Source: Candidatus Azophilus sp.
GTDB lineage: Bacteria; Pseudomonadota; Gammaproteobacteria; Pseudomonadales; Azotimanducaceae
Assembly: GCA_965200465.1 (NCBI GenBank)
Contig: OZ241358.1
Location: 1,189,872 to 1,253,871 of the forward strand
Direction of reading: 5' to 3'
Length of the DNA: 64,000 bases
Shown: in pieces, positions 16,208 through 30,080 of the stretch
How positions within the stretch are numbered: position 1 is the stretch's first letter
How the letters are laid out: each line of letters begins with the position of its first letter
Translations under genes and position numbers: made by a program
Notes under the pieces: generated by a model
Told to the model about the DNA's origin: nothing
What the model saw: the letters and a program-made list of their open reading frames with translations, nothing else
Database searches by the model: none

Positions 16208-16906
16208 CTATGCGGGGGAGATGAAGGACTTCAATTGGTTGGCGAGGCTGGAGCAGGCGGAGGAGCGCACTCTGGCGATGATGGGGATGGGCACGATGAC
16301 CGCCGGCACATAGCTCATGCCGGTGGCTTCGGAACTGATCCTGCCGGCGTTCCGGCCGGTGTTGACGTCCCATACCGAGGCTTCGTAGGAGGAGTCGTTC
16401 TCCCAGGAAAGGAAGCCGAAGCAGCCGCCGCCGCCGGGCGCTACGGCGCAGGTCAGGGAGCCGCCGGAGTCGGTGCGCTCGGTGGAGCCCTCTATCCACA
16501 CCAGATACTTCAGGCGCATCCGCTCCAAGCGTTCGGCCAAGGGCGGCTGCTTGATGATCTCCGGCAGGTCGGCGCTGTTGAGGGGTGCGATGCGCGGTTC
16601 AAACCAAGGGAAGACGGCGTCGATGAACTGCTGCTCGTCAATGACGTTGAAACCTTCCGCCCCGCGGCTCATGTTGTCCGCCACGCAGCTGATGAAGTCC
16701 AGCTCCGTTTCGTCCGCGGTCGGCTGGCTGCGGCGGCCAAGCACCACGATGGCGTCGCCGCCGGACATGGCCGTGTCCGTCTCGCGGATTTCCTGCACCG
16801 TGGCGGTGACGCAGCCGCCTAGCAGCACACACGCCAGAAGGAGCGCCAAGCCGCGCCCTGGGCCAACTGTGGACGCTTCGTCTTGAGGTTCCGCCCTCCC
16901 GAACAC
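16208..16906 (-). CDS. Hypothetical lipoprotein
   Basis: Lipobox-like LLLACVLLGGC, then a Cys-containing soluble domain. The start is uncertain (GTG at 16906 is the nearest upstream start codon). It lies on the same strand downstream of the MotA/vWA cluster. Confidence 0.5.
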   Translation of the reverse strand: MFGRAEPQDEASTVGPGRGLALLLACVLLGGCVTATVQEIRETDTAMSGGDAIVVLGRRSQPTADETELDFISCVADNMSRGAEGFNVIDEQQFIDAVFPWFEPRIAPLNSADLPEIIKQPPLAERLERMRLKYLVWIEGSTERTDSGGSLTCAVAPGGGGCFGFLSWENDSSYEASVWDVNTGRNAGRISSEATGMSYVPAVIVPIPIIARVRSSACSSLANQLKSFISPA

Positions 16907-17022
16907 GGGGTTGCCGGGTTGCCGGATGGGGACTGCGCCCTGGCGCCGCACCCTGCACCCGGCTTGGAGTGAGGCGCCGCGGGCGGCTGGGCGAATCTTG
17001 TGCTGCCTTGGCTGCCTGCACT

Positions 17023-17679
17023 TCATGCCGCCGCTCCCATTTCCTTCGCCAGCCATGCCTGCACCACCGGCACGCTGGCGAACTGCTGGGTGAAGAAGGC
17101 CATGGCGTCCCGGCAGGCGGCCATAGCCGCATCCTGCAGGGCGCTGGAGGCGCCGGCGTGGTTCTGCTTGTGCGCCTTGCCGTAGGCGGTCAAGTCCCAG
17201 CCGCCGAGTTCGACGCCCTGGTTGTCGTGCAGCTTGAAACGATAGCGCAGCCAGACCTCGTAGTAGTCCGAGCGGCTCTGCTCCGGGGTGGCGAACTGCA
17301 CCTCCTCGATGGAAGGCGACAGCACTCCGGCAATGTCAGGATGCTTGGCGTCAACGCGCTCCACCAGCCGATGGCCGGCGAACATGCCCTCCAGCAGGTT
17401 GGCGAACATGGCCGGCTGGGCGGCGCCGAGCTCGATCTCCCAGTCCCCCCGCTGCTCCAAGGACTCCCGGTGGATGTAGGCGAGCAGCGCGTCGTCGAGG
17501 TGGAGGCCCACCGGCAGCGGCACCTTTTCCACCAAGGGCACGGGAAACTGGGTGGGCACCGCCACCTTGGCCCCGGCGCAGCCCACCAACAGGGCCAAGG
17601 CGAACAGCAGCGGGAGGGCTCGGACAAGCCTAGGTTCAGGCCGTCCTCCAGCGCCTTCGGTTGCGGGACAAAGGCGCAT
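17023..17679 (-). CDS. Hypothetical lipoprotein
   Basis: The ATG at 17679 gives MRLC...LPLLFALALLVGCAG (lipobox LVGC). The longer track ORF N-terminus (to 18000) is not protein-like. An AT-richer putative promoter region lies upstream. Confidence 0.55.
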   Translation of the reverse strand: MRLCPATEGAGGRPEPRLVRALPLLFALALLVGCAGAKVAVPTQFPVPLVEKVPLPVGLHLDDALLAYIHRESLEQRGDWEIELGAAQPAMFANLLEGMFAGHRLVERVDAKHPDIAGVLSPSIEEVQFATPEQSRSDYYEVWLRYRFKLHDNQGVELGGWDLTAYGKAHKQNHAGASSALQDAAMAACRDAMAFFTQQFASVPVVQAWLAKEMGAAA

Positions 17680-18027
17680 ACGGCTTTCTCCGAAACTGAA
17701 AATATCCTTGAAAAACAACGACATGGAAAGAATTCTGCAACAGATCCTCGGCCGCGGTTGCCGGCTGTAACGAGGAACAGCCAGCCGAACTGCACCGAGT
17801 GGCGGCGCCGCCCATGCAGCGCTGGGCCAACCCGCGGCCGCGCCGTGCAGCGGCGGAATCCGCACTGAGTTCCCGTGCTTGTGGACGCTGACCCTGCGGA
17901 AAAGGGCGCACACGGCCGGGGATTGGGCTGCGCCCCGGGTGAAGCCTTGAAGCGCTTTCGGCAATGGACTGAATGTGAAGGGCATTGCTGCGTCGGACAA
18001 ACGGGTTGCTGCGGCCTGCCGCCTAGA

Positions 18028-19020
18028 TTACTGGAATTCAGACAAGCCGACAAAGGCGCCTTCGTTGCGGTGCGCCAACTCCCGCATCAGCGCGGCGAAG
18101 CGGTAGATGCGGGCGTTGGGCCGCTGCAAATGCACCGGAAAGCCCACGGCGTTGATGCGCACCCGCCGCCGCCCGGCTTCGTCGGCGACGTTGATGCGGT
18201 CCACCGCATCGACCACCTCCTCTATGGAGTCGCCGCTGTAGTCGTCGCCGAACACATAGATGCCGATGCGCTTGTCCGGCGCGTAGAAGGCGTCGATGGC
18301 GGCCTGAATGCCCTCCACCGGGCTGGAGTTGCTGAACGGGCTCCAACTGCGCAGGGTGTTGATGATGGACTGCCGGCGCGCCGGCGTGTCGGGAATCCAC
18401 TGGCCGCGGTAGCCTGAGAACATGTACTCGCCCATGTCGTTCATCACTTGGATGCCCTTGACGGTGGGATAGACGTCCAAGGTCTCCTGCACCTTGCGCA
18501 GCACCTGCGGCCAGGCGCCGTTGAACATGCTGCCGGAGGTGTCGATGACGAAGATGATGTACTCGCTGTCAACGGCGATGCCGCCCACCAAGTCGCTTTG
18601 GCGGCGGAAATCCATCCCCAGCAGGCGCTCCATCTCGTCGGTGAGGGTCTGGCGGGCGGCGGCCAGCTTCAGGGTCTGCCGCCGCACTTCCTCGTTCGTC
18701 TGCGCGGTGGCCCTGTGCCGGCCGAGCACTCGGGTCAACTCCTCGCGCATGGCGGCCAAGGCCAGCAGGTTCTTGTCCAGCTGGGCGGCGGCCTGCTCCA
18801 CCTGCCGGCGCAGCTCCCGAATCTGGCCCTGGATGTCGTGCAGGGCCTGTTCGCGGCTGGCGACCTGCCCATCCAGGCTGACTGCGGACTTCTCCAGCAG
18901 CACCGGCGCCACCGTCTTGGTGATGAGCAGCAGCAGGATGATGGCCCCGAAGCCGCAGCAGATCACGTCTAGAAAGGAGACGCTGAACTCCTCCATCGGC
19001 CGGCGTCCGCGAATGCTCAT
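18028..19020 (-). CDS. ExbD/TolR-like TM anchor - coiled coil - vWA domain protein (paralogue 2)
   Basis: N-terminus RRPMEEFSVSFLDVICCGFGAIILLLLIT aligns with the in-window ExbD INLTPMLDVVFIMLIFFIV, including the TM Asp. About 100 aa of heptad-like Q/E/R/L sequence follow. The vWA domain has MIDAS DxSxS (FVIDTSGSM). Confidence 0.75.
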   Translation of the reverse strand: MSIRGRRPMEEFSVSFLDVICCGFGAIILLLLITKTVAPVLLEKSAVSLDGQVASREQALHDIQGQIRELRRQVEQAAAQLDKNLLALAAMREELTRVLGRHRATAQTNEEVRRQTLKLAAARQTLTDEMERLLGMDFRRQSDLVGGIAVDSEYIIFVIDTSGSMFNGAWPQVLRKVQETLDVYPTVKGIQVMNDMGEYMFSGYRGQWIPDTPARRQSIINTLRSWSPFSNSSPVEGIQAAIDAFYAPDKRIGIYVFGDDYSGDSIEEVVDAVDRINVADEAGRRRVRINAVGFPVHLQRPNARIYRFAALMRELAHRNEGAFVGLSEFQ

Positions 19021-19033
19021 GGCGCACCGGCCA

Positions 19034-20125
19034 TCAGGGCCAGTCCTTGGAGGGCGCCATGTAGGCGCCGCCGCTGGTGCGGGCTAGGTTCCAAAAGGCG
19101 GCGGAGGCCAAGGGGTCGCCCTCCATCGGCATCAGGATGACGTTGATCGGCACTTGCGGGGGCAGTTGCCGCAGCGCCGCCCGGAACAGGCTGAGCCGGT
19201 CGGCGCCGGAAATGGTCGCCCGCCGCGGCCTTCCGGCGCCCTGGGTGGGCAGGGAGTCAGTCACCAAATAGACGTTGTCCGGCAGGGGGTTCAGGGTGCG
19301 CAGCTTGGCGGCCAAGCGCTCCAGGCTGGTGCCGCCTTTCGGGGTCATGGCGCCTAAGCGGTCGATGGCTGCGGACAGCGCCCGGCCGTCGCCTAGAGGC
19401 GTCCACTGCTCTTCGCTGTCCGGTACTAAGGACAGCGCCTCTTCGCTGAAGGCGAACAATTGGAAGTCCGCGTCCAAGGGCAGTTGCGCGGCCAGCCACT
19501 CCACCGTGCGCACCGCCCGCCGCCACTTGGGAGCGTTGCGCTGGCGCTCCTCCGGCATGTTGCGGCGGCGCAGCACGTTGACGATGGTTTCGTCGAGCAT
19601 GCTGGCGGATGCGTCGATGGCGATGAGGATGTTGCGCCCGCCGACCTTCAGGCCGGTGAGGTACTGCCGATCCCCCTCGCCGACGAACGCCCTGGCCTTG
19701 CCGCCTTCGTCGGCCTCCTCCATTTGGCGCAGCCGGCGCACCTCCTCCTCACGGGCCGCCACGTCGCTGCTCAGCTTCTCCAGGGAGCGCCGCTCCGCCG
19801 AAGACTCGGCGCTTAGGTCGTCGAACGCCTCGCGGGATTGGCGCAGGTCGGCCTGCACGCTCACCAGCTTGCGGCTTGATTCGCTCAGCCGCTGGGCCAG
19901 CGCCTGCAGCCGCTCCCGCCATTCGAACAGGTCCTTCTCGCCGGCTTGCACCTGATAGTCGAGCAGGCGGACTTCGGCAAGCTGCTCCCGGTTGACGACC
20001 TTGGCGTTCTCCTCGGTCTCATGGTTGATGATCAGGAAGATCAGCACCACCGCCCCGAAGCCGCAGGACATGACGTCCAGAAACGACAGCGAGAAGACGC
20101 TCGGCCGCCGTCCGCTGCGGCGCAC
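19034..20125 (-). CDS. ExbD/TolR-like TM anchor - coiled coil - vWA domain protein (paralogue 1)
   Basis: GTG start overlaps the upstream stop (TAGTG). N-terminus RRPSVFSLSFLDVMSCGFGAVVLIFLII is followed by a long coiled coil. The vWA domain has MIDAS IAIDASASM. Same architecture as the 18028-19020 product. Confidence 0.75.
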   Translation of the reverse strand: MRRSGRRPSVFSLSFLDVMSCGFGAVVLIFLIINHETEENAKVVNREQLAEVRLLDYQVQAGEKDLFEWRERLQALAQRLSESSRKLVSVQADLRQSREAFDDLSAESSAERRSLEKLSSDVAAREEEVRRLRQMEEADEGGKARAFVGEGDRQYLTGLKVGGRNILIAIDASASMLDETIVNVLRRRNMPEERQRNAPKWRRAVRTVEWLAAQLPLDADFQLFAFSEEALSLVPDSEEQWTPLGDGRALSAAIDRLGAMTPKGGTSLERLAAKLRTLNPLPDNVYLVTDSLPTQGAGRPRRATISGADRLSLFRAALRQLPPQVPINVILMPMEGDPLASAAFWNLARTSGGAYMAPSKDWP

Positions 20126-21261
20126 TAAGGGCCTTCCTCCACAAGGATGAACTGGAAGCGCCGGCCGTCCCCTTCGTGCATTTCGCCAACGCGCCCCCGC
20201 TCCGGCAGACCGAAGGGATTGCCGCGCAACGGCCAGGCGCGATGGCCCTGCAGGGCGTGGGTGGCGGCCGGCGGCGGCGCTGGGGCGCTGCTTGGGGCGA
20301 CGGCGCCCCTTGGCAGCGTCGTAACCAACTTCAACCCGTCAAGAACACCCTCATGCTGGGCGGCGGCGCGGCTTAAGACGTCCTCCGGCAGGGCCTCGGG
20401 GCGCAGGCCGAGATCACTGAGCGCCGCCATCAGCCCCGGCAGGGCGGCGCTGCGGGGCGCCACCAGCAATTGCGCGTCGGCGGGCACCTTCTCGGCCGCC
20501 GGCGCCAAGCGTTGGGCCAGCTTGTCCTGCAGCGCGGCGCGGCTTAGTTGGGTGCGCCGCACGGCGCCGCGGTGCGTAACCTCCAAGGCCAGGTCGGCTT
20601 GGCCGCCGCTGCGGGACCAAGCGTGCAATTGGTCGTAGAGCTGCTGTTCGGTGTCCGCGGCGTGCAGTGGGTCGAAGCGCAGCTCCTGCACGAAGCGGTC
20701 CGCCGCCAGGTTGGCCCAACCGTCCAGGCAGGAGTTGAGGCCGGCGCTGGCCAGGGGCTCCACTGCGCCGCGGCCCAGCTCTTCGCCGCAGCGAAGTTCG
20801 GTGAGGCAGCAGCGGGTGGCGTGCAGGTCCAGCAGCCAGGTGGGCGGTTGCAGCCGCGCCGCGCTCGCCATCAACAAGGCGGTGTCCACAAAGGCGCGCA
20901 GCTCGAAGCCGGCCTCGTTGGCAATGCCGAGCAGGACGCCGAGTTGCTCCTTGGCCAGAAATCCCGGCACGGCGGCTATGGCCGGCTGTTCCGCCAAGCC
21001 CTGCAACTCCAGCAGGTGCCGATAGACCAGATCCGCATGATTGGCCACCTGCCGCCCCGGGTGCGGCAGCGGGTCCGCGTTCAGCCGCGCCAGATATTGC
21101 TGGTTCGCCTTCTGCGGATGGCGGCGGGCGTTCTTGAGGGCGGCGTCCCCGAAGGTCAGGGCGTCGCCGTCCAGATAGGCGATGGCCGGCTGTTGATGCA
21201 GGATGCGGCCGTCATGGTGCAGGCTGAGAGCCGCGTCGTTGAGCTCCAGCACCAGGGGCAT
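20125..21261 (-). CDS. Cytoplasmic hypothetical protein, possibly a degenerate Hsp70/actin-fold (ASKHA) protein
   Basis: No TM or signal peptide. LVLELNDAALSL, AAVPGFLAKEQLGVLLGIANEAGFELRAFVDTALLMA and WLLDLHATRCCLTEL resemble the Hsp70 phosphate-1, connect and phosphate-2 blocks, but the Gly-rich ATP-binding residues are replaced. The fold call is an inference. Confidence 0.5.
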   Translation of the reverse strand: MPLVLELNDAALSLHHDGRILHQQPAIAYLDGDALTFGDAALKNARRHPQKANQQYLARLNADPLPHPGRQVANHADLVYRHLLELQGLAEQPAIAAVPGFLAKEQLGVLLGIANEAGFELRAFVDTALLMASAARLQPPTWLLDLHATRCCLTELRCGEELGRGAVEPLASAGLNSCLDGWANLAADRFVQELRFDPLHAADTEQQLYDQLHAWSRSGGQADLALEVTHRGAVRRTQLSRAALQDKLAQRLAPAAEKVPADAQLLVAPRSAALPGLMAALSDLGLRPEALPEDVLSRAAAQHEGVLDGLKLVTTLPRGAVAPSSAPAPPPAATHALQGHRAWPLRGNPFGLPERGRVGEMHEGDGRRFQFILVEEGP

Positions 21262-21361: not shown

Positions 21362-22165
21362 TCACTGGCCCCGCACCTGAAGATGGCTCATTAGGCGCTG
21401 GTCGCAGTAGGTCTGCACGTCCAGCACCAGGCGCTCCTGAACGAGCTGCAGTTGGTGCATCAGGAACATGATGACGATGCTGATGACCAAGGCGATGAAG
21501 GTGGAGTTGAAGGCCACGCCTAGGTTGGCCGTCACCCCGGCGATGTCCCCCTCCACGGCCTTGTAGGCCTGTCCAAGGGCCTGGCTGATGCCGCGCACCG
21601 TGCCGATGAAGCCTATGCTGGGAATCGCCCAGGCGATGTAGCGGACCATGGCCAGTTCGCTGTCCAGCCGGTCCGATTCGCTGTCGCAGACCGCCTTGAC
21701 GGCCACCGAGACGTCCTGCACGTTGCGGGTGGCGGCGAAGCGCTGCAGGGCGGACAGCAGCGCCCTTGGCAGCAGCCGCTCCCGCACCGGCGCCGGCAGC
21801 GCCTGAATGGGGCGGGCGTATTCCCGGGCGTCCTCCGGCAGGATGCTCATGCCGTCCGCCACCCGGATGACGTCCTCCGCCAAGAGGCGGCGTTCGCGCA
21901 GGGCGCTGCGGCCCTTGTAGCCCATGATCGCCATTGCCCAAAGCATCAGCACGAAGCAGGACTCCTGCTCGAAGTCCTTGAGCATGACGTAGAGGGACTG
22001 CTGCTCGTCAACGCGCTCGCCGGCCGCCGCCTGCTCGGCCCGCAGTTCAAGGACGGCTTGGGCGTTGGGGCGCACGACGGTGATGTAGAGCAGATGCACG
22101 ACGATCAGCGCCAGCACCAAGGCGGCTATCTGGTAGATCAGCTCCGTGGGCAGTGGCCGCTTCAT
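21362..22165 (-). CDS. MotA/TolQ/ExbB proton-channel family protein
   Basis: 267 aa with three TM helices. The motif AIPSIGFIGTVRGISQA plus FNSTFIALVISIVIMFL parallels the in-window ExbB CPLLGLLGTVTGMISVF. Confidence 0.8.
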   Translation of the reverse strand: MKRPLPTELIYQIAALVLALIVVHLLYITVVRPNAQAVLELRAEQAAAGERVDEQQSLYVMLKDFEQESCFVLMLWAMAIMGYKGRSALRERRLLAEDVIRVADGMSILPEDAREYARPIQALPAPVRERLLPRALLSALQRFAATRNVQDVSVAVKAVCDSESDRLDSELAMVRYIAWAIPSIGFIGTVRGISQALGQAYKAVEGDIAGVTANLGVAFNSTFIALVISIVIMFLMHQLQLVQERLVLDVQTYCDQRLMSHLQVRGQ

Positions 22166-22557
22166 ATATCCACCGGGAAGGGCGCGGCGAAGTCCTCGGA
22201 AATTTCCTCGGAGGGCAGGAACACTTCTTGACGCGGCCCTTCATTCCTTGCGGCTTCGGCATCGCCGGCCGGGTCGGCGCGGCCCTCCGCGGCGGGCGCC
22301 GGCGGCGCCTCGTTCGGAGGCTTCGCCGCCGGCCGCTCCGCCGCTTGCGTGGCGCCGGCGAGGCCGCAAAGCAGCAGGACGGCCGCGCCGCGCCGGATGC
22401 AGCCTAGGTGGAGCCAAGCGCAAGGCGACCGGTCGAACCGCTCTGCATGGCCCGTCCGCCCTGGCGCCGCCGCTGCCTTGGAGACATTGCGCAATTGCGG
22501 CCGCCGCCGGCGAGCGGGAGGGCTTCCTGTTGATGCGCAGCGCATGTTCGTTTCCAC
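22162..22557 (-). CDS. Small single-pass membrane or secreted protein, acidic Pro/Ala-rich C-terminus
   Basis: Hydrophobic segment GAAVLLLCGLAGATQA followed by a Pro/Ala/Glu-rich tail. Its stop overlaps the MotA-like start (ATGA). Only the ATGs at 22557 and 22545 are available as starts, so the N-terminus is uncertain. Confidence 0.4.
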   Translation of the reverse strand: METNMRCASTGSPPARRRRPQLRNVSKAAAAPGRTGHAERFDRSPCAWLHLGCIRRGAAVLLLCGLAGATQAAERPAAKPPNEAPPAPAAEGRADPAGDAEAARNEGPRQEVFLPSEEISEDFAAPFPVDI

Positions 22558-22597: not shown

Positions 22598-24643
22598 CTA
22601 GGGCGCGGCCTCCGCAAAGCGGGCGATTCTAAAGCCTAGATCCGGCCGGCCGTCAATGCCGTAGTCGCGGAATGACAGCCTGAGATCGGTGACGGTGCCG
22701 TGCATCCAGCTGGAGCCGCGGATGACATGATACTCCCCCGCGGCCGGCCCTAGAGGGCCGACGCCTTCGGGGACCGGATGCTGGTAGTAGTCGTTGGTCC
22801 ACTCCGCCGCGTTGCCGCCTAGGTCGAAGAGGCCCTTGGCGTTGGCGGCGAACGCGCCCACCGGCGCCGCTACGGCGTAGTTGTCGTTGTAGCCGAAGAC
22901 GACCCGTCCGACCAGATGGCCGGCGGAGCGGTCCGCGTAGTTGCCGTGGCGGTCGGGTGGCGGCAGGGCCTCCCCCCAGGGAAAGCGAAGCAGCGTCGCC
23001 GCGCCCTCCTGGGTGCGGGCCGCCCAGGCCCACTCCGCCTCCGTCGGCAGCCGGTAGCCAGTGGCTTGCGGGTTGAAGCCGGTCGCCTTGCCGAACTCCT
23101 CGATGTAGAACGGCGGCAGGTTTTCCCGGCGGGACAGCCAGTTGCAGTAGAGTGCGGCGTCGTGCCAGCTTAAGCTCGCCGCCGGCTGATCGTCCTTGTT
23201 CAGGGGCTGGTCCTCGTAGGAGCCGGAGTCATGGCCGCTGGCGAAGGCCCTGAACTCCGCGTTGGTGACCTCCTTGACGGCTAGGTAGAACAGCCGCTTG
23301 AGCGCCACGTCGCGCAGGGTTTCATTGGCCCGCCGGCCCGCCTCCCTTCTGGAGGCGCCTAAGGTGATGGGGCTGGGCTGCAGCAACCTCAGCACCTGTC
23401 CCTGAGCCGTGGTGATTTCCGGGGGCAGCGCCGCCAGCCGCGCCTCCTCCAAGGTCAGCAGGTTGGCGCGCACCTCCAGGGTAAGCCCCGGCCGCGGGGT
23501 GACCTTGGCGCTGTGGTCGGCGTAGCCCGGTGCGCTGATTCTTAAAGTGTGGCGGCGAGCCGGCAACTCCAGGGTTTGGTTGGCCGGCCCGGCCGGGCGT
23601 CCGTTAACGTGCAGCAGGGCGTTGGCCGGGGAGGCCTGCACCGCCACCGCCCCGACCAGTTGCTCAAGCTCCAGGGACAGCGTTCGCGCTTCGCCGGCCG
23701 CCAGCCGCAGGTTCGCCTCCCGCGCCGCGAAACCGGCTTTGAAGACCCGCACGCGATAGGCGCGGCCGGAGCGAAGCTCCACCCGCAGCGGGGATTCGCC
23801 CTGATACTTGCCGTCGATGGTTACGCCGGCGCCGACCGGCCGGGTGCTTAGGCGCAGCGAGGCGTCGGCCTGCCGCAGCTTGATGGGGGAGGGGGCGCGC
23901 CGCTCCTGCGCGACGACCAGAATGCGCTGGCGATGGGCTTGGTGGCCGTCGAGCAGCAGCGCCACCTCATGCTCCCCGGCCAGGATCTCCGTAGTCGCCG
24001 GGGTGCGCCGGCCGGTGTCCCGCCCATCGACCAGGATGCGGGCGCCGGGCGGCTCGGTGACGTAATGCACTTCGCCCCAGTTGGGCGTCAACTCCGCATC
24101 CACCCGTTGCGGCCGCCGCTTGCCAACCACCGTCACCGGCAGCTCCCTTGCTTGATGGCGTGGATGGGTGAAGCGCAACAGCCGCTTCCCGGCCGGCACG
24201 GGAACGTCCGTCAACGGCGTTGCGCCGACGGCCTTGCCGTCAATGCTCACCGAGGCACCGGCGGGAGCGGAGTGGACGCTCAGCAGGCCGGGCAGGGGGG
24301 TGAACTCAAAGGCGAAGGCTTGGTTTCGTTCGGGGCCGACCCGCAGTTCCTTGTCCAAGGGATGATGGCCGGCGAGTTCCGCCCGCACCCGGTAGCTTTG
24401 GCGCAGCAGCAGATGAACGCCGCCGAAGGCGAGAGCCGGGCCGCCGGCAAGCTCCACCCGGTCGGCCGGCGGCGAAAACGCCAACTCCACCGAGCGGGCG
24501 GTGAACAGGAACACCAGCAAGGCGGCGGCGCCCAGCGCCACGGCCGCCAAGGCGATCGGCACCGGCGCGACCTTGGAGCGCCTTGCTCCCGCCGCTGCCG
24601 AAGGCTGATAGCGAATGGGCTGGATCGCCGGGCCGTCGGTCAT
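22598..24643 (-). CDS. Membrane-anchored PEGA-repeat protein with C-terminal FGE-sulfatase (SUMF1/GldK-like) domain
   Basis: The ATG at 24643 overlaps the upstream stop (ATGA). It has TM helix VPIALAAVALGAAALLVFLF and at least four ~70-aa PEGA-like repeats (e.g. LSVHSAPAGASVSIDGKAVGATPL..., LRLSTRPVGAGVTIDGKYQGESPL...). The C-terminus carries FGE-fold blocks AASLSWHDAALYCNWLS, YRLPTEAEWAWAAR, GGNAAEWTNDYY, RGSSW and LGFRIARF. Confidence 0.8.
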   Translation of the reverse strand: MTDGPAIQPIRYQPSAAAGARRSKVAPVPIALAAVALGAAALLVFLFTARSVELAFSPPADRVELAGGPALAFGGVHLLLRQSYRVRAELAGHHPLDKELRVGPERNQAFAFEFTPLPGLLSVHSAPAGASVSIDGKAVGATPLTDVPVPAGKRLLRFTHPRHQARELPVTVVGKRRPQRVDAELTPNWGEVHYVTEPPGARILVDGRDTGRRTPATTEILAGEHEVALLLDGHQAHRQRILVVAQERRAPSPIKLRQADASLRLSTRPVGAGVTIDGKYQGESPLRVELRSGRAYRVRVFKAGFAAREANLRLAAGEARTLSLELEQLVGAVAVQASPANALLHVNGRPAGPANQTLELPARRHTLRISAPGYADHSAKVTPRPGLTLEVRANLLTLEEARLAALPPEITTAQGQVLRLLQPSPITLGASRREAGRRANETLRDVALKRLFYLAVKEVTNAEFRAFASGHDSGSYEDQPLNKDDQPAASLSWHDAALYCNWLSRRENLPPFYIEEFGKATGFNPQATGYRLPTEAEWAWAARTQEGAATLLRFPWGEALPPPDRHGNYADRSAGHLVGRVVFGYNDNYAVAAPVGAFAANAKGLFDLGGNAAEWTNDYYQHPVPEGVGPLGPAAGEYHVIRGSSWMHGTVTDLRLSFRDYGIDGRPDLGFRIARFAEAAP

Positions 24644-26205
24644 TGCTGCAGCGCTTCCCGGCAACTGATGTCTATGGGCGCCATGTCCTCGGCCACGGTG
24701 ATCTGGGCGCGGAAGTCCCGGCAGCCGTCGCGGCTGGCGACGATGGTGTAGGCGCCGGGCCGCAGGCGCAGGCGTTTTTCGGAGAAGCGGCCCAAGGGAC
24801 CTATGTTGGAGAGCAGCACCTCGCTGGCGTTGTCCGAGCGCAGCAGCACCGGCACCGGGCTGCCGTAGCGCCGCAGCAGGGCGTCCGCTGCGGCGACGGC
24901 GGCGGCCAGCACGGGGCCTTGGGGGGCAAGCCGCTTGGCTTCGTCCAGCGCCTGCAAGGCGTCTCGGTAGCGCGCCTCGGCGGACAGCAGGTCCGCGTTG
25001 GCCATGAGTTCGTTCAGGGCCTCCAGAGTTCGCCGCTGGGTTGCCGCCCGCCGCAGTCCGGCCTTGGCGAACTGGACATTGGCGTCCAAGGCCAAAATGC
25101 CCTGGTAGGCGTCCGCCGCCTGCCGCCATTGCTCAGCGGCGGCGAAGGCCGCGGCTTGCTGCTTGAGGCGGCTGATTTCCGCCAGCACCGACTGTTCCGC
25201 GAGCTGCTGCAGGCCGCCGAGGGCGGACGAGTTGTTGGCGTCCATGGCCAGCGCCTGCTCGAAGGCGCTTCTGGCCGCGGCGAACTCCTGCCGCTCCAAG
25301 GCCGCGAAGCCTGTGGAAAGATGGCTGCGCAGCCTTTGCGCCGCCTCGTTCCGGCGGGCTTGGGCAAGGGCGTCGGCGAGGCCGGACGTTGCGGCGTCCA
25401 AGGCGCGGATGCCCTCGTAGGCGCGGACGGCGTCGGCCCAGCGCCCGGCCAGTTCGTGGTTGCGGGCTTGGCGAAATCGGTCGAGCAAGTCCGGCAGCCG
25501 GGCGGCTCGGGCCGCGGCTTGCGCCAACCTTGGGCTGTCGGGCTTGATTTGCTTGGCTTGGTCGAGCTGGGAGCGGGCCTCTTCGGAATTGCGGGCGTCA
25601 ATGGCGGCGAGCGCCGCCGCCAAGGCGCCGTTGAACTGGGAGTGGCCGGCTGCGAGCAACGCGGCCAAGGCGTCCGCCGCTTGCCGGTAGCCGCCGATGG
25701 CCTGCTCAAAGCGTTCGGCGACGAAGGCTTCATCCCCGGCTTGGGCTAGGTCGCGGGCTTGGTCATAGCCTTCCTGTCCCCATGCGCCGACGTTCAGTTC
25801 GTCGCGCAGGCGCAGCTCCAGCTCCACGAAGCGGGCCAGCGCGGCGCTGGCGTCGGTGCGCGCCTGCTCCCGGCGCAAAGCGGCGAAGGGGGGCGGCTGT
25901 TCGGCGGCCGGGCGGCTGGGGCGCGGCGTCGTGGCGGCGCCCTCCTGCGTTGGCGGGGGAGGCTTGACAACAGGTGCCCACTGGGGCGCCAGAGTGAACA
26001 GCGTCGCCACCATGGCGGCGGCCGCCAAGCCGACGGCGGCGTAGAGCGGCCAGCGGCGGCCGTCGGCGCCCGATTTGGCCGTCGTCCGGTTGGCGTGGGT
26101 AAGTGGAACCGGCTGCGGTTCGATCAGCGGCGAATCGCCGACGGGCCTCCGCTCCGTCCCGACTAGGGACGGAGCCCCGGGTTTGGGTCCTGGCTCATTC
26201 TTCAC
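24640..26205 (-). CDS. Single-pass membrane protein with TPR-like helical repeats and a C-terminal PEGA-like beta domain
   Basis: TM helix WPLYAAVGLAAAAMVATLFTL and a Pro-rich linker. The repeated Ala-rich helical hairpins are TPR-like (WADAVRAYEGIRALD, FAAARSAFEQALAMD, WRQAADAYQGILALD). The C-terminus RLRPGAYTIVASRDGCRDF resembles a PEGA strand motif. Confidence 0.65.
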   Translation of the reverse strand: MKNEPGPKPGAPSLVGTERRPVGDSPLIEPQPVPLTHANRTTAKSGADGRRWPLYAAVGLAAAAMVATLFTLAPQWAPVVKPPPPTQEGAATTPRPSRPAAEQPPPFAALRREQARTDASAALARFVELELRLRDELNVGAWGQEGYDQARDLAQAGDEAFVAERFEQAIGGYRQAADALAALLAAGHSQFNGALAAALAAIDARNSEEARSQLDQAKQIKPDSPRLAQAAARAARLPDLLDRFRQARNHELAGRWADAVRAYEGIRALDAATSGLADALAQARRNEAAQRLRSHLSTGFAALERQEFAAARSAFEQALAMDANNSSALGGLQQLAEQSVLAEISRLKQQAAAFAAAEQWRQAADAYQGILALDANVQFAKAGLRRAATQRRTLEALNELMANADLLSAEARYRDALQALDEAKRLAPQGPVLAAAVAAADALLRRYGSPVPVLLRSDNASEVLLSNIGPLGRFSEKRLRLRPGAYTIVASRDGCRDFRAQITVAEDMAPIDISCREALQQ

Positions 26206-26229: not shown

Positions 26230-27432
26230 TTACGCGGGGTCGTCCGTCTCGGCCGGCGCCGGGGCGGGCAGCCCTAGGTCTGCAAAGTAGAGTTCGCGCA
26301 GGATGCGGCGCAGTTCCTGGTATTGCTGATCGACCGTGCCCTGCAGGCGCACGGTCTGGTTCTCCAACTCCAGGGTGTGGGGCATGATTTCGGCCTCCGC
26401 CGCCATGCCGATCTCCTGCAGGGCCTCCGCCTGCATGGCGGCCTCGTTCCTTTTCGCCACCGCGCCCTTGATCAAGGCGGCGCCGGCGCCGATGGCGACT
26501 AAGCCGGTGGCGTCAATGTAGGGATTGCTGCTGTCGTAGATGGCGCCGATGCCGGCGCCGATGGCGGCGGCGCCGGTCAGGGCGCGGGTGCGCGCCTGGG
26601 CCTTGAGTTCGCGCAGGGCGGCGGCCTCCGAGTAGGTGGCGTTGCGCCATTCCTGATAGGGGCGGTGCATTTGCCGATGGTAGTTGGCGTAGTGTTCGTC
26701 CAGGGTGTCGATGAAGACGTACTCGCGCTCCCGCACTTGGCGCACCCGCGCCAGCATGGGGTCGTCCTCCGCCGGCAGCCGCAGCAGCTTGAAGCCGCCC
26801 TCGGGCAGCGCCTGCACATGGCTGGCGAAGGCGTCCGGCGCGAAGTCCCGGGCGAACTTCATCTCCGCGGTGGCGCGGATGGCGCGGATGGTTGCGTCGT
26901 CCAACGTCTCCCGGTAGGCCAGCATGTCGTCCGCCAACTGCCGGTAGTTGGCTTGGAAGGGGTCGATGCCCGGCGGCATGGTCGGCGAATAGGCGTATTT
27001 GCTGGCCAGCGCCCGGTAGGTCCTGCTGAACCAAACCTGGCCGCGGGCGTCCGCCACCGTGAATTCCTGGGTGAGGCGTTCGCCGTCCGACTCCAGAATC
27101 TTGCCGGTGACGGTGACGTCCACGGCGTGGGTGGGCCGGGGAACCACCCGCACGGCGCCCCAGTTGCCGGTGCTTTGCAGCACGTTCTTGGCGAAGTAGG
27201 GCATGAACTGCGCTTCGGCGCGACGAATGTCCGGGTTGATGAGTTGGGCGACCTGCTCGTCAAAGCTCTCCGGAATGTTGGGGTCCAGCACGGCGACGCC
27301 GATGTCGAGCAGGTGCGTCTCGTCCTGAACGCCTTGGAACTGCTTCGGCGGCGTTAGGTCCACCGTGCGCACGGATTCGGAGACGCAGGCGGTGAGCGCC
27401 GCCATGCAAAGGGCAATGGGGATGAGGCGCAT
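26230..27432 (-). CDS. Hypothetical lipoprotein with C-terminal glycine-zipper segments
   Basis: MRLIPIALCMAALTACVSE (lipobox LTAC). Near the C-terminus are two Gly/Ala-rich hydrophobic segments, GAAAIGAGIGAIY and LVAIGAGAALIKGA. The start lies 2 nt after the upstream stop. Confidence 0.65.
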   Translation of the reverse strand: MRLIPIALCMAALTACVSESVRTVDLTPPKQFQGVQDETHLLDIGVAVLDPNIPESFDEQVAQLINPDIRRAEAQFMPYFAKNVLQSTGNWGAVRVVPRPTHAVDVTVTGKILESDGERLTQEFTVADARGQVWFSRTYRALASKYAYSPTMPPGIDPFQANYRQLADDMLAYRETLDDATIRAIRATAEMKFARDFAPDAFASHVQALPEGGFKLLRLPAEDDPMLARVRQVREREYVFIDTLDEHYANYHRQMHRPYQEWRNATYSEAAALRELKAQARTRALTGAAAIGAGIGAIYDSSNPYIDATGLVAIGAGAALIKGAVAKRNEAAMQAEALQEIGMAAEAEIMPHTLELENQTVRLQGTVDQQYQELRRILRELYFADLGLPAPAPAETDDPA

Positions 27433-27434
27433 GG

Positions 27435-28385
27435 TCAGCGGCCCTTGTATCTCTCGTATTCCGCCCAGAGTTTCTCGCGCAGCACTGGGTCCTGCTCCGC
27501 CATGGCCGCTTCGCGCAGTTGCCGGGCGATGATGTCGTCGTCCTTGGCGTCCGGGACGCCGCCCGCCGTCCGTCCGCCGCCGCTGCCCGGCATGGCCGGG
27601 GCGGGGCGCGGCGCTCTGGTGGTGCGTGCGCCGGGAGATGCGGCCTTGCCACCGCCTCCGGCCGGCTTGGCGGGGGCTGGTTGCGGAACCCCGCCGCCGG
27701 TTCCGGCGGTGCCGCGGTTGGAGCGTTCGGTGATGACGGAGCGTTCCGCCAGAATCTCTCCGTCGAACGCCTCAAGAGCTTGCTCCAGGGCGCCTTGCCC
27801 GCTTGCCGGAGCGCCGCCCTTGGCGCCTGAACCCGGCAGGCTGCTGGGGTTGCCGCCGCTGGGCGCTTGGCTGCCGGAAGCGGAACCGCCGGGCACGGAA
27901 CCGCTGGGTGCGGAGCTGCCGGGGACCGAACCGCCGGGCGCCGTTCCACTGGGCATGGCGCCGCCGGCTGGGGAATGGCCGGGTGCGCCGCCGCCGGGCG
28001 TTGAACCATCGGAGGATGGAGCGCCTGTTGAGCCTGGCGCGTTTGGCGGCGGCGGTATGCGCGCCTGCCCAGCGCCGCCGGGCATGGAGTTGGACGAACC
28101 GCCGGAAGTTCCGCCGGGGCTTGGCGCTCCTGCAGGCTCGGCGCCGCCCGGCAAACCGCCTGGGCTGGGCAGACCGCCTCCGGGAAGGCCGCCACTGGGC
28201 AGTCCTCCGCTGGGCAGTCCTCCGCTGGGCATGCCGCCGCCACTTGGCCCGCCGCTGGAGGAACCGCCGCTGGGGCCGGAGGACGAAGGCGATTGCGGCT
28301 GCTGCGGATAGAGCGGCGATATGGGCGCACAGGCCCACAGCAGAGCGAGCAGGGCGAAAAAAGCAATCTTGCAAGCGGCGCTCAT
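27435..28385 (-). CDS. Gly/Ser/Pro-rich low-complexity lipoprotein
   Basis: The ATG at 28385 gives MSAACKIAFFALLALLWACAP (lipobox LWAC). About 230 aa of G/S/P repeats follow (PSGGLPSGGLPSGGL...). The C-terminus is an ordinary helix, DDIIARQLREAAMAEQDPVLREKLWAEYERYKGR. Strand was chosen from the lipobox and operon context. Confidence 0.55.
   Translation of the reverse strand: MSAACKIAFFALLALLWACAPISPLYPQQPQSPSSSGPSGGSSSGGPSGGGMPSGGLPSGGLPSGGLPGGGLPSPGGLPGGAEPAGAPSPGGTSGGSSNSMPGGAGQARIPPPPNAPGSTGAPSSDGSTPGGGAPGHSPAGGAMPSGTAPGGSVPGSSAPSGSVPGGSASGSQAPSGGNPSSLPGSGAKGGAPASGQGALEQALEAFDGEILAERSVITERSNRGTAGTGGGVPQPAPAKPAGGGGKAASPGARTTRAPRPAPAMPGSGGGRTAGGVPDAKDDDIIARQLREAAMAEQDPVLREKLWAEYERYKGR
28195..28239. 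repeat. 15-bp tandem repeat x3 inside the Gly/Ser/Pro-rich lipoprotein gene
   Basis: ctgggcagtcctccg ctgggcagtcctccg ctgggcatgccgccg, read directly. On the minus strand it encodes the PSGGL pentapeptide repeats. More degenerate G/S/P-coding repeats extend over about 27850-28290. Confidence 0.8.
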
Positions 28386-28548
28386 GGCTGGCTTGGCATC
28401 CAACGGGGTGGAGCAGCCCTGGCCGCGGCGGCCTTGGCGTGATCGCAATCCGTCATGGGTTTCCCGAATCCAAGCCGTACGGCCAGTTTGGCCGCCCCGC
28501 TTGGCCGAAGGGGGGCGAGGCAGATGCGCCGCACGACCGGCAGGCGGC

Positions 28549-29940
28549 TTAGGCGTCTTCATCGTCCGCGTCCTCCTCCCGCACAAAGTAGCTGAATTCA
28601 TGCCGGTAGGTTTCCTGTTCAAAGGCGGTGGTTCGGCCATCGACCAAGGCCGGGCGGTAGCGGGCGTTGCGCAGGCTGCGGCGCACCGAGAAGTCCATCA
28701 TGCCCTTCGGCTCGGAGGCCACCACCTGCATGTTCTGGACGCCGCCGGTGGGCGACACCCGAAACGCCACCTCCACGAAGCCGGGGTTCTCCTTCCCCGC
28801 CAAGGCCCGCCGCCCCGAAGGCGGCTTTGGATCCTTGGGCAGGGGCATGTGCAGCAGCTTCGGCTTGGCGAAGTAGGCCTCGGCATCCACTGAGTCGAGT
28901 TGCTGCATGACGCCGTAAACGTGCTCGTAGAGGACTTCCGCCTTGTTGAAGCGCTCCCAAAGCAGGTGCCAGTCGGCCAGGTCCAGGATGGCTTCCGAAA
29001 CCGGCAGGGGGCCGCTGGCGGGATCTTCCCGACGAATGTGGATGACCGCCTGCAGCGCCCTCTCCGCCACGGGGAAGTTGTTGAAGGTCAGGGGCGCGTC
29101 GAAGGCCGAGGTGCGCACGCTGGGCCGGGTGGACATGGCGAACGCCGGCGCCTCCCGCTCGCTGGCGTAAAAGGGCGGGAAGCGCTCCATGCGGTAGGTT
29201 TCGGCAAGCCCCTGCAGCGCTGGGATGGCCTTGGGCGCCCCCTCGTCGCCGTTGGCCGCATGAATGCGCAGCGCCTGCTCAAACAGGGCGCGGGCGGCGA
29301 AGATGTTGTACCTTGCGTTGTGCCACTTGGCGAGGCGGAAGATGCCGGGCAGCAGGGCCTCGCTGTCCGCCCCGTGAGCCTTCCACAGGACTTCAAAGGC
29401 GTACTCCTCGCGGCTGGCGGCCTCCTCCAGGTTGCCGAGGCGCTGCAGCGCCTCCGACTGCTTGTAAACCGCTTCGACCTGGTTGGGGGTGAACAGGCCG
29501 TCGCTGACCCGGCTGACGTGGACCGCCGTGGCGTAGCTTTGCAGCGCTTCCTCGTATTGGCGAAGGCCGAACTGGGCGTCGCCAAGCAGGGTCAGCGGCC
29601 TAGCCAAGTCCCCGTGGTGGCGGTGGCGGGCGGCTTCAAGGGCGCGGATGTAGGGCACTAGGAAGGCTTGCGCCTTCCCGTATTCGGCGTTGTCGATGTC
29701 AACCGCCACCGCATCGAGCGGCGAGGCCGTTGCGCCAAGGGCTTCCTTGATGCGCTCCATCGCCGCCGCAACCGAGGATTCCCCAGCCGCGGCGGCTTGC
29801 GGCGCTGCGGCCTCCGGGCGAGCCTTAAGCTCGGCGGCGCCGGCCGCGCCAGGCAGCGGCAGCGCCAGCAGAACAACGGCCTGCACCAGCAGCAAGCAAC
29901 CGCGCCGCCGCCCGGCGCGGCTTTGCAAGGACGTCGCCAT
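28549..29940 (-). CDS. Secreted TPR-repeat protein with C-terminal TonB-C-like domain
   Basis: The ATG at 29940 gives a signal peptide (CLLLVQAVVLLALPLPGAAGA). The central region is TPR-like. A KDPKPPSG linker precedes GFVEVAFRVSPTGGVQNMQVVASEPKGMMDFSVRRSLRNARYRPALVDG. That block aligns with the in-window TonB C-domain GYVLLEFVVTRTGAVRDPVVLESKPPGIFDRAALNAALKFKYKPKVVNG. Confidence 0.65.
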   Translation of the reverse strand: MATSLQSRAGRRRGCLLLVQAVVLLALPLPGAAGAAELKARPEAAAPQAAAAGESSVAAAMERIKEALGATASPLDAVAVDIDNAEYGKAQAFLVPYIRALEAARHRHHGDLARPLTLLGDAQFGLRQYEEALQSYATAVHVSRVSDGLFTPNQVEAVYKQSEALQRLGNLEEAASREEYAFEVLWKAHGADSEALLPGIFRLAKWHNARYNIFAARALFEQALRIHAANGDEGAPKAIPALQGLAETYRMERFPPFYASEREAPAFAMSTRPSVRTSAFDAPLTFNNFPVAERALQAVIHIRREDPASGPLPVSEAILDLADWHLLWERFNKAEVLYEHVYGVMQQLDSVDAEAYFAKPKLLHMPLPKDPKPPSGRRALAGKENPGFVEVAFRVSPTGGVQNMQVVASEPKGMMDFSVRRSLRNARYRPALVDGRTTAFEQETYRHEFSYFVREEDADDEDA

Positions 29941-30080
29941 AGTGAACCCGTTCGCCCGGCCTCCTGTTCGCCAGCCTGCTTGCAGTGTGGAACCCGCACT
30001 TCGGCAAGTCAAGACGGAGGTTGATCGCGCACTCGCTTTGGGCCTATGCTGCCCGCTTGAATTGTCGGGAGGGATGGATC

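Follow-up and report, generated by a model that had tools for sequence, protein, structure and literature searches.

What does a protein with the fold of the formylglycine-generating enzyme (FGE) do at the end of a membrane-anchored stalk, encoded beside a MotA-like channel gene? This question is raised by a stretch of 64,000 nucleotides from Candidatus Azophilus sp. (GenBank assembly GCA_965200465.1, contig OZ241358.1, positions 1,189,872 to 1,253,871 of the forward strand; hereafter the window), in which two overlapping genes on the minus strand, g04 and g05, encode a protein with TPR-like repeats and a protein combining PEGA domains with an FGE-sulfatase fold. A preliminary description made from the sequence alone had considered a structural or sensing role likelier than conversion of Cys to formylglycine, and our analysis supports this view: none of 51 family members has the catalytic Cys residues, and the gene pair is conserved. 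The interpretation we favor, with a rough probability of 0.6, is that g04 and g05 form the non-motor, periplasmic sensor/scaffold module of an envelope machine built from a MotA/TolQ-like channel and a pair of proteins with von Willebrand factor A (vWA) domains. The two genes and the parts of their products, in window coordinates, are as follows; AF2 stands for AlphaFold2 and ORF for open reading frame.

24640-26205, minus strand: g04, a bitopic inner-membrane protein of 521 amino acids (ORF list, AF2 model, Foldseek matches to TPR proteins, TPR Pfam matches in homologues).
26095-26127, minus strand: g04 residues 27-37, LIEPQPVPLTH, the cytoplasmic motif I-x-P-[KR]-x-V-P-L-[ST]-H (about 30 aligned N-termini of kinase-less homologues).
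25987-26052, minus strand: g04 transmembrane segment, residues ~52-73 (AF2 helix 56-71, preceded by GRR).
24865-25887, minus strand: g04 periplasmic TPR-like helical-repeat domain, residues 107-447 (predicted local distance difference test, pLDDT, ~97; Foldseek).
24649-24864, minus strand: g04 C-terminal PEGA-like beta-sandwich, residues 448-519 (AF2, hhalign, conservation).
24640-24643, minus strand: ATGA in which the g04 stop and g05 start overlap, indicating translational coupling (sequence).
22598-24643, minus strand: g05, a bitopic inner-membrane protein of 681 amino acids (ORF, Pfam, AF2 model).
24602-24625, minus strand: g05 residues 7-14, IQPIRYQP, the cytoplasmic motif I-x-P-V-x-Y-x-P (homologue alignment).
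24500-24565, minus strand: g05 transmembrane helix, residues 27-48 (AF2; Arg/Lys precede the helix).
23453-24499, minus strand: five PEGA-type beta-sandwiches forming the stalk of g05 in the periplasm, residues 49-397 (Pfam, AF2, hhalign).
22616-23419, minus strand: g05 head with the FGE-sulfatase fold, residues 409-676, where conservation within g05 is highest (Pfam, HMMER, Foldseek).
22685-22717, minus strand: degenerate catalytic loop GSSWM-HGTVTD, g05 residues 643-653, in which both Cys are lost (HMMER, against GGSYMCHRSYC of human FGE).

Translation of g04 starts at the GTG at 26205, as backed by the N-termini of homologues, and its TGA (24642-24640) overlaps the ATG of g05 (24643-24641) by 4 nucleotides. 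The g05 frame in the ORF list has 843 codons, but we placed the true start at the ATG at 24643 because homologues start at the equivalent of that ATG; the 162 codons 5' of it are Arg/Gly/Pro-rich, out-of-frame text within g04. Among the 116 loci where tblastn detected both genes, the 4-nucleotide overlap was found in 32 and a possible g05 start lay between -20 and +30 nucleotides of the g04 stop in 105, counts that are upper bounds because the start candidate nearest to the stop was taken. The overlap and the tight spacing agree with the translational coupling proposed in the preliminary description.

The g04 product runs from a cytoplasmic N-terminus through a transmembrane helix, a Pro-rich linker and a TPR-like solenoid to a C-terminal PEGA-like beta-sandwich. 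A membrane anchor, TPR-like repeats and a PEGA-like C-terminal domain had been suggested for the upstream partner, and the results from AF2, Foldseek and hhalign are in keeping with this. In the AF2 model (pLDDT 87 overall, ~97 in the folded parts), the transmembrane helix comprises residues 56-71, the disordered linker 72-106, the helical-repeat domain 107-447 and the beta-sandwich 451-513. While g04 itself gave no Pfam match at E<0.01, its homologues match TPR_1, TPR_2 and TPR_11, and the top Foldseek matches of g04 were the TPR proteins P58IPK, Hop and BamD, with low template-modelling (TM) scores of 0.16-0.22. Within g04, conservation is highest in the C-terminal beta-sandwich, and hhalign aligned this end domain with the first PEGA domain of g05 at 89% probability; C515 is invariant. 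In more distant homologues, 25-31% identical across most of the periplasmic region, a Ser/Thr kinase precedes the transmembrane helix, so that the topology of g04 is N-in and C-out, with the TPR part extracytoplasmic.

In g05, Pfam detected four stretches of PEGA (PF08308, E=1.2e-47, 160 bits against a threshold of 20.8) and an FGE-sulfatase domain at residues 427-675 (PF03781, E=3.8e-36). The AF2 model, built from the alignment of 51 sequences with members down to 27% identity, has a mean pLDDT of 91.6 and shows a transmembrane helix (27-48), five beta-sandwiches (50-113, 119-184, 189-243, 261-325 and 330-394) and an FGE fold (409-676). The first sandwich, not caught by Pfam, is a divergent PEGA domain that hhalign related to the other four with 96.5-97.5% probability. 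Therefore, the order of membrane anchor, PEGA repeats and FGE-sulfatase fold given in the preliminary description stands, while the number of PEGA-type domains is five rather than four. Because basic residues precede the transmembrane helix, the 25-residue N-terminus is cytoplasmic and the remainder periplasmic. The closest structural match of the head was PvdO (TM score, TMt, 0.75), followed by the Treponema variable protein TvpA (0.69) and the human and S. coelicolor FGEs (0.66-0.68), with PorK at 0.33. Mean identity is 61% in the FGE head and 59% in the g04 C-terminus, against 38-44% in the stalk and the TPR region.

FGE chemistry requires the Cu(I)-binding C336 and C341 of the human enzyme, with S333, H337 and Y340 close by (PMC4505483). 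An alignment with human FGE, which had been proposed as a check, placed the degenerate loop of g05 over this site, and not one of the 51 family members aligned (31 in addition to 20 close homologues; 27-82% identity) has a Cys anywhere in this loop. The sole Cys of the window's g05, C500, lies in the structural YCNW motif and is also the sole near-invariant Cys across the family. Invariant throughout the family are W493, N501, W502, GYRL 529-532, E537, W538, N568, Y585, D587, GNxxEW 610-615, R659 and GFR 670-672; these probably correspond to core and Ca-site positions of the fold, with N568, D587, N611 and E614 as the probable counterparts of Ca ligands in human FGE. The loop itself is strictly kept in the close clade as GSSWMHGTxT(D/E)LR and is variable in the wider family, with H, S, R, K, N, D, T or Q at position 648. 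A search of the genome found no sulfatase (PF00884) within ~570 kb of the locus, which extends the earlier remark that none is close by; the roughly seven sulfatase genes of the genome give PF00884 matches at 0.33, 1.82 and 2.13-2.24 Mb, compared with 1.21 Mb for the locus. Eight FGE-domain matches elsewhere in the genome outscore g05 (E from 1e-37 to 7e-65). Six of these form an unusual tandem array of paralogues within 10 kb (G000:C1:490361-499761), some in open frames of 600-1000 amino acids. As far as sequence can tell, formylglycine chemistry by g05 is excluded.

The pair is part of a twelve-gene operon on the minus strand, g01 to g12, the other members of which are the following.

28549-30012, minus strand: g01, a secreted TPR protein with a C-terminal TonB_C domain, start not fixed (Pfam; syntenic in 65 of 80 close loci).
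27435-28640, minus strand: g02, a Gly/Ser/Pro-rich lipoprotein with a conserved C-terminal helix, start not fixed (synteny).
26230-27432, minus strand: g03, a lipoprotein of 400 amino acids, a universal core member directly upstream of g04 (ORF, synteny).
22162-22557, minus strand: g06, a small membrane protein whose stop overlaps the MotA start (ORF, synteny).
21362-22165, minus strand: g07, a MotA/TolQ/ExbB-family channel (PF01618, E=2.4e-14).
20125-21261, minus strand: g08, a cytoplasmic protein of 378 amino acids with no family match (homology to the N-terminal 350 amino acids of the FHA protein in kinase-type loci).
19034-20125, minus strand: g09, trans-pore-helix/coiled-coil/vWA protein 1 (ORF, Pfam; family described in PMC12204202).
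18028-19020, minus strand: g10, trans-pore-helix/coiled-coil/vWA protein 2 (ORF, Pfam).
16208-17700, minus strand: g11 and g12, two lipoproteins closing the long-type operon, starts not fixed (synteny).

The association of the pair with this motor was examined in two samples. In the close set of 80 loci, obtained from a scan of species-representative genomes, identical genes in identical order were found in every locus as far as the contigs allow. In a sample of 401 genomes, consisting of 400 Gammaproteobacteria drawn evenly from the class plus the genome of the window, full-length g05 occurred in 37 and the vWA protein in 37, with both in 36 where independence would predict ~3.4; the two exceptions were fragments at contig ends. 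The two genes were nearly always on one contig and one strand, 2-5 kb apart. The co-occurrence with the MotA-like gene that had been suggested for checking was therefore found, and it includes the vWA pair. Among ~35 distant gammaproteobacterial loci the strict core comprises the g02 C-terminal helix, g03, g04, g05, the MotA-like gene, vWA1 and vWA2, and six loci from one family in another class of Pseudomonadota have exactly this compact seven-gene form. The overall order g02-g03-g04-g05-(g06)-g07-(g08)-g09-g10 is fixed in ~120 loci, and g04 and g05 kept their order in every locus examined, including the 116 detected by tblastn, so the conservation on which the proposed role depended is present. 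The operon was found in all 24 genomes of the window's genus and in one of 16 genomes from other families of the order. Salinisphaera/Spectribacter provide cultured carriers suited to genetics, and a metagenome-assembled genome (MAG) of Methylophaga has a homologue.

Several loci depart from the pattern of the window. The MotA-like gene is not between g05 and g08 in five of them (L074, L078, L098, L106 and L109); in L106 it follows vWA2, and in genome G275, 22 kb of a single contig separate g03-g05 from the motor genes. The genome of the window contains a second, compact paralogous system 430 kb off (G000:C1:1641011-1648000; locus L081, 7009-14217) with a g03-like lipoprotein, a g04-like gene, a PEGA-FGE paralogue of 629 amino acids (~30% identical), one MotA-like and two vWA genes, and without g08, g11 and g12; such a compact second copy is present in about half of the genomes of the genus. 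A contig labelled Limisphaerales (Verrucomicrobiota; L057, JBNMMV010000206.1) has a long-type operon whose g05 is 51% identical to that of the window, a value that matches the closeness of Pseudomonadales MAGs and points to misbinning or to recent transfer.

Within the operon, the vWA proteins g09 and g10 have transmembrane helices of the form SFLDV...GFGA, with an Asp in the helix, and intact DxSxS metal-ion-dependent adhesion sites, IAIDASASM and FVIDTSGSM (window 18028-20125); because these sites are intact, the vWA heads could bind an acidic ligand through a metal. No ExbD/TolR match was found by Pfam among the operon products. The C-terminal ~40 amino acids of g02 (DDIIARQLREAAMAEQDPVLREKLWAEYERYKG; window 27435-27560) are 50-83% identical across classes, in contrast to the variable, low-complexity remainder of g02; this conserved segment is probably a docking helix. 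The first protein of the operon has an acidic C-terminal tail, EDADDEDA. As for g08, a relationship to Hsp70/actin-like proteins was considered and found no support from phmmer against the PDB or from Pfam.

What the module may do is suggested most strongly by variants of the operon. Kinase-type loci span at least five families (G238 and G023, two metagenome contigs of Steroidobacteraceae type, and G385 and G315, which are partly observable); in these, g04 has an N-terminal Hanks-type Ser/Thr kinase and the g08 homologue has a C-terminal FHA domain (PF00498, E ~2e-11), kinase and FHA being present in L099, L100, L101 and L102. The g08 of the window aligns to the first 350 residues of the FHA protein (33% identity, E=2e-31) and is without the FHA end. 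In four of the five kinase-bearing loci examined, and in one locus whose upstream part is cut, g05 is moreover extended at its N-terminus by a cytoplasmic domain of ~110-130 amino acids, with sub-threshold similarity to FHA in two of the four tested. Among the loci examined there was none with a kinase and no FHA domain or the reverse, and neither occurs in the window or in any of the 80 close loci. The kinase-less long type has short conserved cytoplasmic motifs on both g04 and g05 instead, and the g05 motif, I-x-P-V-x-Y-x-P, is present where g08 exists and missing in the compact type without g08. In our view, it is the kinase/FHA variants that point most strongly to a role in signalling or as a scaffold. 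Outside the motor system, genes fusing a Ser/Thr kinase to a C-terminal FGE-sulfatase domain, flanked by another FGE-domain gene, were seen in two Gammaproteobacteria (L119 and L120, in G001 and G224); this is an independent association.

Putting these together, the sensor/scaffold module would work in the following way. The two proteins would be co-translated and inserted as bitopic proteins in the inner membrane, where we infer that they contact each other. The rigid five-PEGA stalk would carry the inactive FGE head toward the outer-membrane side of the periplasm, a reach that follows from the usual length of 3.5-4 nm per Ig-like domain, and g04 would provide a TPR scaffold with a PEGA-like head. 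Both heads may act as protein-binding modules, their likely partners being the outer-membrane lipoproteins of the operon and/or the vWA heads of the axle. Since conservation peaks in the distal heads while the stalk and TPR regions evolve faster, the heads fit the binding of conserved partners at a set distance from the membrane, not of variable foreign ligands. At the other end, the cytoplasmic parts of g04 and g05 would report to g08 and hence to the motor channel. In relatives this would occur by phospho-threonine signalling, with the kinase on g04 and the FHA or FHA-like domains on g08 and g05, and in the lineage of the window the coupling would run through the two short conserved N-terminal peptides.

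Several observations weigh against this interpretation. The version in the window is without kinase and FHA, so that the signalling part is borrowed from relatives. The FHA-like nature of the extra g05 domain in kinase-type loci is unproven, with 14-15 bits against a Pfam threshold of 20.7. That the g05 motif goes with g08 may stem from one ancient divergence of the long and compact types instead of from co-variation that arose repeatedly. Finally, the head keeps the polar S645 and H648 (in the close clade) and the invariant N568, D587, N611, E614 and R659, which leave some room for a chemistry other than formylglycine formation.

The main rival is a ring of the PorK/GldK type, in which the g05 heads would oligomerize into a periplasmic ring or cage round the vWA axle, as PorK/PorN do above the PorL/PorM motor of the type IX secretion system, in a purely architectural role. 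An FGE-fold gene directly upstream of motor genes mirrors gldK-gldL-gldM, PorK chains match g05 in sequence and fold, the best NCBIfam match of the FGE domain is GldK/PorK (E=5.7e-21), and the kinase-less, FHA-less form of the window suits such a role. On the other hand, this match reaches 75.3 bits against the TIGR03525 cut-off of 350, the TM score to PorK is less than half of that to PvdO and about half of those to true FGEs, and g05 begins with a 22-residue transmembrane helix without any Cys or lipobox. No PorN, PorL or PorM homologues and no Por/Gld family matches were found among the neighbors, and the kinase/FHA variants argue for more than architecture. The comparison with these ring proteins drawn in the preliminary description is thus no more than an analogy, and we rejected membership of g05 in the PorK/GldK family on score, anchor type and fold overlap. 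A ring is unlikely, in our estimation, though it would be compatible with a sensor/scaffold role.

A more speculative extension, which we regard as rather doubtful, is that the pair, the lipoproteins and the vWA axle constitute a proton-powered device that probes the integrity of the envelope or remodels it. In such a device the dead FGE head, aided by an outer-membrane lipoprotein much as TagR is by TagQ, would capture the vWA heads of the rotating or pulling axle, and g04 and g05 would relay the engagement, or its loss, through the inner membrane to g08, through phospho-threonine in kinase-type lineages and through the docking peptides in the window. If true, this would be a mechanically driven sensory machine with a logic akin to TagQR-PpkA and to Tol-Pal/Ton; to our knowledge, no machine of this kind has been described.

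We consider it improbable that the g05 head is an active periplasmic oxidase or modifying enzyme that, in the manner of PvdO or the EgtB/SenA group, has some part of the machine or the envelope as its target. The closeness of the PvdO fold, the NCBI name of one homologue ('SUMF1/EgtB/PvdO family nonheme iron enzyme'), the many invariant polar residues and the strictness of the loop in the close clade are in its favor, but the loop varies in the wider family, as at position 648, g05 falls far short of the NCBIfam equivalog cut-offs for PvdO, EgtB and SenA, Pfam found no gene for a redox partner or cofactor among the operon products, and the invariant residues probably match structural and Ca-site positions of FGE.

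Very little speaks for an anti-phage or conflict system in which the FGE head would be the receptor for an invader-derived molecule and trigger a Zorya-like, MotA-driven response. Conflict systems and diversity-generating retroelements are known to use FGE (FGS) domains for binding (PMC7159879), and the MotA-like protein has a weak ZorA match (E=0.0027). However, PADLOC (PADLOC-DB 2.0) found nothing for g04 or g05, and Pfam detected no nuclease or other effector domain among the operon products. The FGE head is the most conserved region rather than a variable one, and the presence of the operon in all 24 genomes of the genus in the same order fits vertical inheritance of a housekeeping-type machine. 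With PADLOC negative we rejected a defence system, and the suggestion of a ligand sensor of this type found no support.

That g05 is a genuine FGE maturing sulfatases is hardly tenable and was rejected, since, despite a Pfam FGE-sulfatase match far above threshold, the JGI label 'formylglycine-generating enzyme required for sulfatase activity' on homologues and the sulfatase genes in the genome, the Cys pair is absent throughout the family, the sulfatases are at least 0.57 Mb off in a genome with eight better-scoring FGE matches, and g05 is tethered to a motor operon.

The sensor/scaffold module can be set against several known systems. Proton-driven 5:2 motors (Mot, Ton, Tol, Agl, GldLM and Zorya) are a small set that moves energy from the inner membrane to the envelope. 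[quoted passage not shown] The window agrees with that description in its tolQ-like gene, the lack of tolR/exbD and the heterologous gene pair encoding an Asp-containing transmembrane helix, a coiled coil and a vWA domain. It differs in that the obligate association with the TPR/PEGA-FGE pair, here directly upstream, and with lipoproteins is absent from the paper, the text of which contains no occurrence of FGE, PEGA, sulfatase or formylglycine and likewise no mention of a kinase or FHA layer. Full-text literature searches gave no description of the g04-g05 pair, the eLife 2020 paper on conflict systems (PMC7159879) dealing with FGS and PEGA in other contexts only, and database names of homologues are 'PEGA domain-containing protein' and the FGE and SUMF1/EgtB/PvdO names given above. 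A motor class with vWA-headed axles, predicted only in 2025, was never found alone: a TPR protein, a PEGA-FGE stalk and lipoproteins accompany it. This gives a parts list and testable contacts, those of the FGE head with a vWA head or lipoprotein and those of the N-terminal peptides with g08.

As to the FGE fold, PvdO resembles the g05 head most closely in structure and is also without the FGE cysteines, but it is a soluble, single-domain protein of a siderophore (pyoverdine) pathway, and g05 scores 47 bits against the NCBIfam PvdO cut-off of 500. PorK/GldK share with g05 an FGE fold without FGE chemistry, located in the periplasm and encoded beside a proton-driven motor; PorK, however, is an outer-membrane lipoprotein forming a ring with PorN, whereas g05 is anchored in the inner membrane and has five PEGA domains, and its neighboring motor is of the MotA/ExbB family instead of PorL/PorM. 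Kinases with extracytoplasmic FGE-sulfatase sensor domains likewise tie an FGE fold outside the cytoplasm to Hanks-type kinase signalling, while here kinase and FGE are on separate, translationally coupled proteins tied to a motor.

In the H1 type VI secretion system (T6SS) of P. aeruginosa, TagR, which has an FGE-sulfatase-superfamily domain, and the outer-membrane lipoprotein TagQ jointly bind the kinase PpkA at its folded periplasmic domain, after which PpkA phosphorylates the FHA protein Fha1 (PMC13713981); this periplasmic domain is a vWA domain (PMC3224232). The two systems have in common a non-catalytic periplasmic FGE fold, outer-membrane lipoproteins and a periplasmic vWA domain, together with a kinase and FHA in the relatives of the locus. 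They differ in that here the vWA domains are on the motor axle proteins, any kinase forms part of the TPR protein as a fusion, and g05 is anchored in the membrane through a PEGA stalk; Pfam and NCBIfam found no T6SS families among the twelve operon products. The comparison of g05 with TagR is at the level of the superfamily, and the likeness, which offers a precedent for the proposed module, lies in the use of an FGE fold for protein-protein binding. If the proposed role is correct, g05 would be the third independent case, after PorK and TagR, of an FGE fold serving as a periplasmic protein-binding module beside an envelope machine.

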